From Escherichia coli (GTDB lineage Bacteria; Pseudomonadota; Gammaproteobacteria; Enterobacterales; Enterobacteriaceae): a stretch of 64,000 nucleotides of DNA. The notes below the pieces were generated by a model. It searched no databases. It saw only the letters and a list, made by a program, of their open reading frames with translations, and was not told the DNA's origin. Below are positions 1,715 through 2,960 of this stretch, in pieces; position 1 is the stretch's first letter, and every line of letters begins with the position of its first letter. The stretch lies in the NCBI RefSeq assembly GCF_002854065.1, contig NZ_CP024147.1. One strand, written 5' to 3'. Made by a program: the position numbers and the translations under genes.

Positions 1715-2587
1715 ATGGATGCACCGAGTACCACACCGCATGATGCAGTGTTTAAACAATTTTTAATGCACGCGGAGACGGCTCGCGACTTTCTGGAGAT
1801 ACATTTGCCAGTGGAATTACGAGAACTTTGTGACCTCAACACGCTTCATTTAGAGTCGGGGAGTTTCATTGAAGAGAGCCTGAAAGGACACAGCACGGAC
1901 GTGCTCTATTCCGTGCAAATGCAGGGCAATCCCGGTTATCTGCATGTTGTGATTGAACACCAAAGCAAGCCGGATAAGAAAATGGCCTTTCGCATGATGC
2001 GTTATTCTATTGCTGCCATGCACCGGCATCTGGAGGCGGATCACGATAAGCTGCCGCTGGTGGTGCCGATACTGTTTTATCAGGGCGAGACCACACCTTA
2101 TCCGCTCTCAATGTGCTGGTTTGATATGTTTTACTCGCCGGAGCTGGCGCGACGCGTCTATAACAGTCCTTTTCCGCTGGTGGATATCACTATCACACCG
2201 GATGACGAAATCATGCAGCACCGGCGGATTGCGATTCTCGAACTACTGCAAAAGCATATTCGCCAGCGCGACTTAATGTTATTGCTGGAGCAACTGGTCA
2301 CGCTGATTGACGAAGGGTACACTAGCGGAAGTCAGTTAGTTGCCATGCAAAACTATATGCTGCAACGCGGTCATACTGAACAAGCGGATTTGTTTTATGG
2401 TGTGCTGAGAGGCAGGGAAACGGGAGGGGAGTCTATGATGACGCTGGCGCAGTGGTTTGAAGAGAGGGGAAGACAGGAGGAAAGGCAAGAATTCGTCCTG
2501 CGTCTTCTGAATAAAGGAATGTCTCGGGAAGACGTTGCAGAGATGGCAAATTTACCCCTTGCCGAGATTGATAAGCTGATTAACTAA
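1715..2587 (+). CDS. rpnC: Recombination-promoting nuclease RpnC (YhgA-like, PD-(D/E)XK transposase_31 family)
   Basis: Track ORF 1658..2587; likely start is the ATG at 1715 (MDAPSTTPHDAVFKQF..., typical Rpn N-terminus); C-terminal tail contains the QWFEE...GMSREDVAE...EIDKLIN module. Confidence 0.85.
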   Translation: MDAPSTTPHDAVFKQFLMHAETARDFLEIHLPVELRELCDLNTLHLESGSFIEESLKGHSTDVLYSVQMQGNPGYLHVVIEHQSKPDKKMAFRMMRYSIAAMHRHLEADHDKLPLVVPILFYQGETTPYPLSMCWFDMFYSPELARRVYNSPFPLVDITITPDDEIMQHRRIAILELLQKHIRQRDLMLLLEQLVTLIDEGYTSGSQLVAMQNYMLQRGHTEQADLFYGVLRGRETGGESMMTLAQWFEERGRQEERQEFVLRLLNKGMSREDVAEMANLPLAEIDKLIN

Positions 2588-2655
2588 GTTGTCTGCATCA
2601 TCAGTTATAGCCAGATAATTGTTATTGTTAACTGACCAGATAATTAAGGGAACCT

Positions 2656-2865
2656 ATGGAAATAAAGACACGGAGAGAAACCAGGCAGACGTTGGCGCAG
2701 TGGTTTGAAGAGAAGGGATTTCAGAAGGGATATCAAGAGGAACTCCAGAAGGTAAGACAGGAATTCGCCCAGCGTTTTCTAAGTAAAGGGATGTCTCGGG
2801 AAGACGTTGCAGAGGTGACAACTTTACCTCTTACAGAGATTGATAAGCTAATTAACTCTAACTAA
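2656..2865 (+). CDS. Stand-alone small protein homologous to the RpnC C-terminal module (RpnS-like)
   Basis: 69-aa ORF; residues TLAQWFEE...GMSREDVAEVTTLPLTEIDKLIN parallel the last ~48 aa of RpnC; AAGGGA Shine-Dalgarno 5 nt upstream of the ATG. Confidence 0.55.
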   Translation: MEIKTRRETRQTLAQWFEEKGFQKGYQEELQKVRQEFAQRFLSKGMSREDVAEVTTLPLTEIDKLINSN

Positions 2866-2960
2866 ATTGCCAGCGATATGAATAATCACTTACAGACGTC
2901 ATCGCCATGACGTAGGGCAAATTAATAACTGGCGCCATCAGCCGTAGCGCCAGTTAAGTA

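Follow-up and report, generated by a model that had tools for sequence, protein, structure and literature searches.

In E. coli, rpnC lies in the order panD-rpnC-panC, and in the 64,000-nt stretch of E. coli DNA analyzed here (the window) it is followed by a small open reading frame that repeats its 3' end. Where did this small gene come from, and does it act on the toxin next to it? Rpn proteins are gene-within-gene toxin-antitoxin and antiphage systems, and the number of helix-1 repeats decides which RpnS silences which RpnL. A second, uncoupled RpnS gene beside rpnC is relevant to the diversification of Rpn systems.

A reading of the window from sequence alone, without database searches, had taken the arrangement to be undescribed. 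In fact, the gene has a name: Zhong et al. 2023 (PNAS 120:e2307382120, PMC10400941) call it rpnCSs, derive it from rpnC, and report that it varies in four-amino-acid repeats and is lost via deletion or via fusion to an rpn N-terminal domain. The locus described here is the same gene, with no difference in kind. The portions of that article at hand give no rpnCSs frequency, outgroup polarity, junction coordinates or functional test of RpnCSs. Our literature search found no later work on RpnSs function and no report of RpnCSs expression; K-12, the strain tagged by Zhong et al., does not carry rpnCSs.

rpnC encodes a full-length nuclease and a predicted internal RpnC-S

The features of rpnC and its downstream flank in the window are:

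1715..2587, plus strand: rpnC (yadD), full-length nuclease RpnC (RpnC-L), 290 aa (ORF, PGAP annotation of a strain identical over the region, Pfam, NCBIfam)
2435..2587, plus strand: predicted in-frame internal ORF of RpnC-S, MMTLAQWFEE...LIN, 50 aa (start placed by homology)
2465..2488, plus strand: copy 1 stretch of four-amino-acid repeats, with RGRQ and EERQ as its two units, located in helix 1 of both RpnC-L and RpnC-S (translations)
2926..2956, no strand assigned: G+C-rich hairpin between rpnCSs and the convergent panC, with its terminator score on the minus (panC) strand

Domain tests identified rpnC as a gene of the Rpn / YhgA-like PD-(D/E)XK nucleases. Its product carries the N-terminal YhgA-like nuclease domain at residues 7-207 (Pfam PF04754, E=2.2e-87) and scores 266.9 bits against NCBIfam TIGR01784 (cutoff 52.1); this nuclease domain is missing from the small ORF. 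The Pfam family DUF4351 (PF14261) reached E=0.04 at best on the RpnC C-terminus, and PADLOC returned no match for RpnC. The window allele is shorter than that of K-12 (290 aa versus 300 aa). A candidate Shine-Dalgarno sequence, GGGAGGGGAG at 2422-2431, precedes the predicted RpnC-S start, and both an internal initiation site and SPA-tagged RpnC-S have been shown for K-12 rpnC (Zhong et al. 2023, PMC10400941).

Two copies of the rpnC 3' end

Repeat searches and comparison of the flanks delimited the following elements:

2440..2601, plus strand: repeat copy 1, from rpnC codons T-L-A-Q-W-F-E-E to the stop codon TAA (2585-2587), plus about 14 nt (repeat search, flank comparison)
2602..2687, plus strand: filler between the repeat copies, with AAGGGA at 2646-2651, ATG at 2656 and 11 new codons, MEIKTRRETRQ (sequence)
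2688..2879, plus strand: repeat copy 2, from T-L-A-Q-W-F-E-E to the stop codon TAA (2863-2865) and on through about 14 nt of diverged homology past the stop (repeat search, flank comparison)
2446..2465, plus strand: 20-bp block GGCGCAGTGGTTTGAAGAGA, first copy, with an exact match at 2694-2713; the natural fusion alleles have their crossover inside it
2694..2713, plus strand: second copy of the 20-bp block (sequence comparison)
2713..2760, plus strand: four-amino-acid repeat region of copy 2, four units KGFQ KGYQ EELQ KVRQ (translation)

Two blocks of similarity link the copies, one with 80% match (2440-2490 versus 2688-2738, start-to-start spacing 248) and one with 85% match (2474-2585 versus 2746-2857, spacing 272). 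Because the spacing shifts from 248 to 272, copy 2 has 24 extra nucleotides, that is two 4-codon units, and its repeat region exceeds that of the resident RpnC by 8 aa (four units versus two). A further 6 nt (codons SN) lie ahead of its stop codon, and homology reaches about 14 nt beyond both stop codons (GTTGTCTGCRTTAT-like). In a gapped alignment 120 of 138 columns are identical (87%). The tandem duplication with its free-standing RpnS-like gene, proposed in the sequence-only reading, was thus borne out by the repeat search and the ORF, while two of the values estimated there by eye need correction: identity was put at about three quarters, and the insertion in copy 2 at about 27 nt where we measured 24. 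The direct repeats of about 24 bp are present, as ACGCTGGCGCAGTGGTTTGAAGAGA at 2441-2465 and ACGTTGGCGCAGTGGTTTGAAGAGA at 2689-2713, but their identical core is 20 bp long.

A chance match was rejected, since 1555 of 5426 complete E. coli genomes and 47 metagenome contigs have this two-copy structure as well; an assembly artefact was likewise excluded as the source of the two-copy locus. Taken together, the comparison of the copies shows that rpnCSs is the product of a partial tandem duplication of the rpnC 3' end. The duplicated segment runs from the codons T-L-A-Q to about 14 nt beyond the stop codon, and the Shine-Dalgarno sequence, the ATG and the 11 new codons came from a filler of about 85 nt. 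This filler carries a short internal direct repeat (CCAGATAATT twice). Searches of the rest of the window and of 74 Rpn loci found nothing similar to the filler (about 85-89 nt) and the new N-terminus.

rpnCSs is an intact ORF for a predicted RpnS-like protein

The second copy forms a gene of its own:

2656..2865, plus strand: rpnCSs, free-standing RpnS paralogue, 69 aa (ORF, C-terminal match to NCBIfam TIGR01784, name from PMC10400941)

It starts 68 nt 3' of the rpnC stop codon on the same strand and encodes 69 aa, MEIKTRRETRQTLAQWFEE...LINSN. The ORF is intact, with AAGGGA 4 nt 5' of its ATG and the 11 new codons MEIKTRRETRQ, in agreement with the earlier prediction of a 69-codon ORF with its own ribosome-binding site and N-terminus. 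The product matches the C-terminal end of TIGR01784 (profile positions 213-273 of 273, E=2.8e-8), and alignment with RpnC-S sequences gave 26 invariant columns, among them the motifs TLAQWFEE and KGMSREDVAE; a product unlike Rpn C-terminal domains was excluded. Searches of the small ORF against Pfam gave nothing significant, with no match to DUF4351 (PF14261) at E<=0.001 for the 69-aa protein, and PADLOC gave just a weak RmrA match (E=5e-4).

An AlphaFold2 model (pLDDT 74.5) predicts a long helix (H3-43) and two short helices (H48-55, H59-67). RpnS four-amino-acid repeats are reported to be hypervariable and to lie in helix 1, starting 8-20 residues from the initiating Met (PMC10400941); those of RpnCSs begin at residue 20 (KGFQ...), within the helix 3-43 of the model. 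Foldseek placed RpnA-S (7TH0) fourth among the matches to this model at a non-significant E=4.4, with a TM score of 0.68 when normalized by the 46-residue target and 0.47 when normalized by the query. Sequence searches of the PDB with the protein and with an 18-sequence profile did not retrieve 7TH0; apart from a designed 'CAP repeat' protein, they gave nothing but weak helix-turn-helix-like matches.

A crude scan from the rpnC stop codon to the small ORF detected no terminator-like or promoter-like site, and an autonomous transcription unit for rpnCSs was rejected as unsupported. The hairpin at 2926..2956 is the sole such structure 3' of both rpnC and rpnCSs. RpnCSs is probably translated from a transcript of rpnC or rpnC-S that reads through, giving a predicted three-helix RpnS-like protein able to dimerize through helix 1.

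PGAP annotation of rpnCSs is inconsistent between strains. In the strain identical over the region the gene is labelled a pseudogene, 'incomplete; missing N-terminus', and in other strains it is an 'RpnC/YadD family protein', a 'hypothetical protein' or a 'transposase'.

One-copy and two-copy alleles coexist

The two-copy marker (spacer plus new N-terminus) is found in about 29% of the complete E. coli genomes, and both allele types coexist in the species. A single copy is present in four representatives of non-coli Escherichia species (E. albertii, E. whittamii and two Escherichia sp.), and two are present in a divergent lineage (L009). The left boundary of the two-copy structure is constant in three annotated complete-genome loci, in the 47 metagenome contigs, in L076 and in L009. 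Candidate plasmid copies were discarded: records of 0.4-4.9 Mb carrying the chromosomal rpnC locus look like mislabelled chromosomes, and the remaining matches are distant Klebsiella Rpn genes. A search for a phage-encoded RpnCSs mimic, as an anti-defence protein might be, gave no match in 50,697 phage records.

The sequence-only reading had also noted that the first 250 codons of rpnC and the 50 codons of copy 2 add up to 300 aa, about the length of reference RpnC, and proposed that, if so, one-copy and two-copy states are related by recombination between the direct repeats. The arithmetic is right and K-12 RpnC does have 300 aa, but the hybrid model does not hold for it: the K-12 cassette is 91.3% identical to window copy 1 and 82.7% to copy 2 (aligned columns). 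Its units KGIE-KGIQ-QGRQ are shared with one-copy Escherichia sp. E1V33 and E. whittamii, and those of E. albertii are near-identical (KGIE-KGIQ-LGRQ). Since the units are common to one-copy relatives, the 300-aa length of K-12 is most simply read as the ancestral one-copy form. Distances in a tail phylogeny (about 100 nt) were mosaic rather than tree-like, and repeat-unit structure and outgroups were used instead.

Cassettes recombine between the two slots

The predicted 300-aa recombinant does exist. E. coli AHM8C212RI and AHM8C160RI carry a one-copy rpnC of 300 aa whose cassette is identical to window copy 2 (168/168 nt), and the switch from copy-1 to copy-2 type falls within the 20-bp identical block. 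In AHM8C212RI there are 0 mismatches over the 151 nt of copy-2 cassette 3' of this block. The junction indicates that unequal recombination in the 20-bp block gives rise to a one-copy fusion gene.

Other alleles point to traffic between the slots. For example, locus L112 carries the exact K-12 cassette together with its downstream flank in the copy-2 slot, and in L092 the K-12 cassette occupies the copy-1 slot. Similarly, two 81-nt tail alleles are found in both slots, and the cassettes of both copies vary independently in their count of 12-nt (four-amino-acid) helix 1 units. Among the best 25 matches listed for complete genomes, none was a single-piece full-length match to an L112-type allele, in a search whose count was confounded by the joining of non-collinear pieces. 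By these patterns, homologous recombination moves cassettes from one slot to the other as well as from allele to allele.

RpnCSs is rarely matched to the resident toxin

RpnS proteins are reported to block RpnL, and neutralization of a cognate RpnL by RpnS to need four-amino-acid repeats that are equal in number (PMC10400941). One extra repeat in RpnC-S leaves RpnC-L no longer blocked, a rule that rests on a single +1 KGIE construct (PMC10400941). The window itself combines two units in RpnC with four in RpnCSs, a departure from the equal repeat number of a cognate RpnS. Across haplotypes, the helix-1 linker of RpnCSs equals that of the resident RpnC in 1 of 29 pairs, where 1.14 would be expected at random, and 13 of the 29 length differences are not multiples of 4 aa. 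As RpnCSs and the resident RpnC hardly ever agree in helix-1 length, a non-cognate RpnS variant is the more likely identity for RpnCSs, and together with the published matching rule the unequal repeat lengths disfavor a cognate antitoxin role in most strains, that of the window included. We are confident that rpnCSs stems from a partial rpnC duplication and is more likely a non-cognate spare cassette than an antitoxin of the resident RpnC-L. Weak or partial heterodimerization of RpnCSs and RpnC partners with unequal helices may occur.

The principal alternative is that RpnCSs acts in trans on the resident RpnC-L, neutralizing or modulating it in addition to RpnC-S or as its backup. It shares the RpnC-S domain with its invariant TLAQWFEE and KGMSREDVAE, the ORF is intact behind a conserved Shine-Dalgarno sequence and ATG, RpnS proteins do block RpnL (PMC10400941), and the analogous YpaA/RpnESs is made in K-12 (PMC10400941). 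We nevertheless consider this role rather unlikely, given helix-1 lengths that differ in 28 of the 29 pairs, as at random, 13 of the 29 differences that are not even multiples of 4 aa, and the loss of neutralization with a single extra repeat (PMC10400941); furthermore, a cognate RpnC-S is already encoded within rpnC, and constraint on the copy-2 tail is relaxed.

The second alternative views rpnCSs as a non-functional, decaying relic of a recombination accident, possibly promoted by RpnC, that is neutral and sometimes lost by deletion or fusion. The gene is missing from 71% of E. coli genomes and lost naturally by fusion, one copy (L097) is frameshifted, the crude scan detected no promoter of its own, and the strain identical over the region has it as a pseudogene in its PGAP annotation. 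The ratio pN/pS of the tail is 0.64 for copy 2 versus 0.18 for copy 1 (27 codons only, from recombining alleles), which indicates relaxed or diversifying constraint on copy 2. Against decay, 45 of the 46 metagenome or genome loci that are complete keep copy 2 intact despite many indels, in a metagenome sample chosen by an exact 38-nt junction pattern that decayed copies would escape. The intact copies fall into nine length classes of 156-228 nt, separated mostly by 12-nt and sometimes by 6-nt steps, and all are in frame. The nine alleles of the spacer and the three of the N-terminus all keep the start codon and Shine-Dalgarno sequence (AAGGGAAC-N2-ATG), the residues of the motifs do not vary, and the gene persists in a lineage as divergent as L009. 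We therefore regard a mere relic as unlikely.

Very unlikely is descent from another complete rpn gene, one duplicated whole in tandem or inserted as a paralogue and later stripped of its nuclease domain, which would suit the PGAP note 'incomplete; missing N-terminus', the reported tandem rpn arrays from direct duplication (PMC10400941) and a weak R-x-R-E-T likeness between RDRETGGESMM-TLAQ of rpnC and TRRETRQ-TLAQ of the small ORF, but is opposed by an 89-nt filler and N-terminus without detectable similarity to rpnC or 74 other Rpn loci, by a left boundary that is constant in all two-copy loci examined and by the lack among them of any intermediate with a longer N-terminal remnant.

Relation to known systems and significance

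The closest parallel to rpnCSs is ypaA/rpnESs of K-12, located 3' of rpnE (yfaD), which is also a free-standing copy of an RpnS domain directly after its parent gene and whose protein was detected in K-12 by SPA tagging (PMC10400941). It differs in that it arose independently, from rpnE, according to the phylogeny in PMC10400941, and it lies outside the window. Intragenic RpnS antitoxins (RpnA-S, PDB 7TH0; RpnC-S) have in common with RpnCSs the domain, the predicted topology of one long and two short helices, and hypervariable four-amino-acid repeats near the start of helix 1. In contrast to their internal start, RpnCSs has its own gene, Shine-Dalgarno sequence, ATG and an 11-residue novel N-terminus, and its repeats are not tied in number to those of the toxin, a match that an intragenic RpnS has by construction.

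Under the non-cognate reading that we prefer, the role of resident antitoxin would belong to the intragenic RpnC-S, and rpnCSs would hold specificity in reserve, as a spare cassette for recombination to place on the nuclease. Going further, its main function could be to re-key the helix-1 length of toxin and antitoxin through slot swaps and fusions, perhaps stimulated by the recombination-promoting nuclease activity of RpnC itself, diversifying Rpn defence under phage pressure; this we offer only as a speculation, with low expectations. The slot-to-slot exchange and fusion seen in natural alleles back it as events only. The silent pilE/pilS cassettes of Neisseria provide an analogy and nothing closer: there too a promoter-poor partial 3' copy sits beside an expressed gene and exchanges segments with it, yet rpnCSs is one spare copy rather than an array and is a complete, probably translated ORF.

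That rpnCSs exists, derives from rpnC and can be lost through fusion was already published; added here are its 29% frequency, evidence for one-copy ancestry, a fusion allele with a mapped junction, and slot exchange. That RpnCSs is rarely length-matched to the resident toxin sharpens the question of what RpnSs proteins do. If the re-keying speculation is true, Rpn defence would have a built-in route of diversification under phage pressure.

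The rpnC locus and its downstream repeat

The window opens in the yadE-panD-rpnC(yadD)-panC-panB region of E. coli, and E. coli CUWW06 is 100% identical to it across positions 1600-2960. In CUWW06 two features are annotated there by PGAP:

1715-2587, rpnC, 290 aa
2686-2865, pseudogene, 'hypothetical protein, incomplete, missing N-terminus'

The 3' end of rpnC (copy 1) recurs downstream as a diverged copy 2. A repeat search recovered two direct-repeat blocks, 2440-2490 against 2688-2738 (80%, start-to-start spacing 248) and 2474-2585 against 2746-2857 (85%, spacing 272); because the spacing goes from 248 to 272, copy 2 has 24 extra nt in the repeat region, or two four-codon units. 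Relative to copy 1 it also has 6 extra nt before its stop, and the two copies stay homologous for about 14 nt past each stop codon. The sequence-only reading, which had described two copies and a separate 69-codon ORF with an AAGGGA site, holds in all its statements on the sequence, with two small corrections: the ORF at 2656-2865 encodes 69 aa, with AAGGGA 4 nt upstream of the ATG. The insertion and divergence it noted in copy 2 are present, but measure 24 nt rather than ~27 nt and 87% identity (120/138 columns of a gapped alignment) rather than about 75%.

No source of the filler between the copies (2602-2690) was detectable in comparisons with the window and 74 Rpn loci. Within the spacer, a short stretch at 2612-2649 is directly duplicated (CCAGATAATT ... 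CCAGATAATT). This internal repeat is absent from L009, a divergent 'E. coli' lineage with two copies, where the spacer is 43 nt instead of 68 nt; the spacer therefore gained 25 nt after the duplication that produced copy 2.

Elsewhere in the window, the htrE-like usher gene for yad fimbriae contains an IS2 of 1331 bp at 8525-9855. CUWW06 is otherwise about 99.99% identical, yet its IS2 corresponds in place to 10038-11368, a shift of ~1.5 kb, and the usher is annotated there by PGAP as a split pseudogene; this reflects either movement of IS2 or a difference between the assemblies. Two Rfam matches are expected in this part of the E. coli chromosome:

37055-37100, HtrA (degP) 5' UTR thermometer
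45257-45343, t44 sRNA

Identity and predicted fold of the small protein

The arrangement had been put forward as perhaps undescribed, but the feature is rpnCSs: arrangement, origin and one-copy/two-copy relationship are already known, as they are described by Zhong et al. (2023, PNAS, PMC10400941). In that work rpn genes are gene-within-gene toxin-antitoxin and antiphage systems in which a small C-terminal RpnS, made from an internal translation start, blocks the full-length nuclease RpnL. The same authors gave the name rpnCSs, parallel to ypaA/rpnESs, derived RpnCSs from RpnC in their phylogeny, and found the four-amino-acid repeats variable in RpnSs proteins too. PGAP labels for rpnCSs, in the window (2656-2865) and other genomes, are inconsistent: pseudogene ('missing N-terminus'), 'hypothetical protein', 'transposase', 'RpnC/YadD family protein' and sometimes none. 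The RefSeq product name 'RpnC/YadD family protein' is used in many strains (e.g. WP_000404124.1, WP_000404123.1).

RpnC matches PF04754 (E=2.2e-87). Of the Rpn profile TIGR01784, the 69-aa protein matches only the last 61 positions (E=2.8e-8); as is usual when a fragment is scored, the match stays under the cutoff set for whole proteins. Pfam DUF4351 gave no significant match. AlphaFold2, given 18 RpnC-S and RpnCSs sequences, predicts a long helix (3-43) plus two short helices (pLDDT 74.5). The fourth-ranked Foldseek hit was 7TH0, the crystal structure of RpnA-S (target-normalised TM 0.68, but E=4.4), which is compatible with an RpnS fold and no proof of it. The protein also weakly matches RmrA in PADLOC (2656-2862; E=5e-4, profile positions 290-336 of 357) and is similar to 8VD6, a designed helix-turn-helix-like 'CAP repeat' protein (E=2.9e-6); a generic short motif, helical or helix-turn-helix-like, probably accounts for both matches.

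The predicted hybrid and the K-12 allele

Recombination between the copies had been predicted to yield a 300-aa hybrid. A synthetic junction of rpnC upstream sequence and the window copy-2 cassette (QWFEE to stop), used as query, matched AHM8C212RI and AHM8C160RI over its full length and in one piece under rpnC; the hybrid exists, though rarely, being present in these two genomes. The AHM8C212RI-type locus has one copy and a 300-aa RpnC ending KGFQKGYQEELQKVRQEFAQRFLSKGMSREDVAEVTTLPLTEIDKLINSN. Compared with the hybrid predicted from the window, this natural fusion shows 0 mismatches in 151 cassette positions, 2/235 downstream and 33/1025 upstream, without gaps. It switches from copy-1 type (ACGCTG) to copy-2 type inside a 20-bp identical block, GGCGCAGTGGTTTGAAGAGA, exactly where the crossover in the direct repeats had been placed.

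The suggestion that reference K-12 RpnC is itself such a hybrid was rejected. Its 168-nt cassette equals window copy 2 in length, but is nearer to copy 1 (91.3% of aligned columns) than to copy 2 (82.7%). The units KGIE-KGIQ-QGRQ are common to K-12, the one-copy Escherichia sp. E1V33 and E. whittamii, with near-identical units in E. albertii (KGIE-KGIQ-LGRQ); E1V33 also has four units and a two-codon tail. Since K-12 shares units and layout with one-copy Escherichia alleles, the 300-aa length is most simply read as the ancestral one-copy form. In the two-copy allele this layout persists in copy 2, and the repeats that changed are those of copy 1. Overall, the observation is confirmed and its first interpretation partly supported.

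Distribution and ancestry

One-copy and two-copy alleles both exist, as anticipated. The two-copy marker (the 105-nt spacer and new N-terminus) was present in 1555 of 5426 complete E. coli genomes, chromosomal in every case, with carriers including CFT073, Nissle 1917, ST131, ST38 and O145 strains. One copy with a 300-aa RpnC was found in K-12, O157:H7 and O111 strains, and one copy among the species representatives E. albertii, E. whittamii, two Escherichia sp. and E. coli E69. As these Escherichia relatives are one-copy and the divergent L009 is two-copy (N-terminus MDITARRETRQ), the duplication arose, or spread, inside E. coli sensu lato.

Of ~70 other Rpn loci, L019 (Rahnella bruchi) alone had a second downstream RpnS-like segment, about 324-452 nt past the stop of an unrelated Rpn paralogue and 63% identical to that protein's own tail; outside Escherichia, then, a duplication of the RpnSs type seems to have occurred independently. 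An E. coli-type two-copy locus (98-99% identical) in an 'uncultured Oscillospiraceae bacterium' metagenome-assembled genome (CALXDF010000219.1) is probably a binning error. No homologue of the small protein was found in 50,697 phage records. Plasmid-database matches were distant Klebsiella Rpn genes or records of 0.4-4.9 Mb, whose size and chromosomal rpnC locus make them look like mislabelled chromosomes.

Function and cassette mobility

A true trans-antitoxin is one rival explanation of RpnCSs. The intragenic RpnC-S already fills the cognate antitoxin role, and addition of a single KGIE unit stopped RpnC-S from blocking RpnC-L, the converse also holding (Zhong et al. 2023, PMC10400941). The RpnC-L and RpnC-S of the window carry two units (RGRQ EERQ), its RpnCSs four (KGFQ KGYQ EELQ KVRQ). 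Linker lengths were equal in 1 of 29 haplotype pairs, with 1.14 expected under random pairing, so the two slots vary independently; in 13 of the 29, the difference was not a multiple of four residues. Under the published length rule, RpnCSs would usually not be the cognate antitoxin of the resident toxin. Many B2-type rpnCSs alleles (L003, L005 and related loci) carry a 6-nt deletion in copy 2 (..KVRLAQR.. for ..KVRQEFAQR..), so that helix 1 differs in length from other alleles by two residues instead of a multiple of 4, which would change the register of the helix against any partner.

A neutral relic is the second rival. A metagenome scan for the copy-2 junction gave 47 loci. Across 46 metagenome and genome loci with both copies complete (30 distinct haplotype pairs), copy 2 was intact in 45, in nine length classes, every one in frame; the exception (L097) is frameshifted. 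Tail pN/pS was 0.64 in copy 2 against 0.18 in copy 1 (27 codons, a sample too small to decide), suggesting that the evolution of copy 2 is relaxed or diversifying. The third rival is a remnant of a full second rpn gene.

Cassettes were found in either position. One locus (L112) carries the exact K-12 cassette and downstream flank in the copy-2 slot; in another (L092) the K-12 cassette fills the slot of copy 1 and is joined to a spacer and copy 2 of window type. Two tail alleles of 81 nt are shared between the slots, and pairwise tail distances are mosaic, not tree-like.

Scanning the interval from the rpnC stop to the small ORF revealed nothing resembling a promoter or a terminator; read-through from rpnC or the internal rpnC-S promoter would be the simplest source of transcription. 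We found no expression or activity test of RpnCSs in the searchable literature. On the best reading of these comparisons, RpnCSs is a non-cognate RpnS variant that is maintained and probably translated, and that in practice would supply an alternative C-terminal cassette via recombination.
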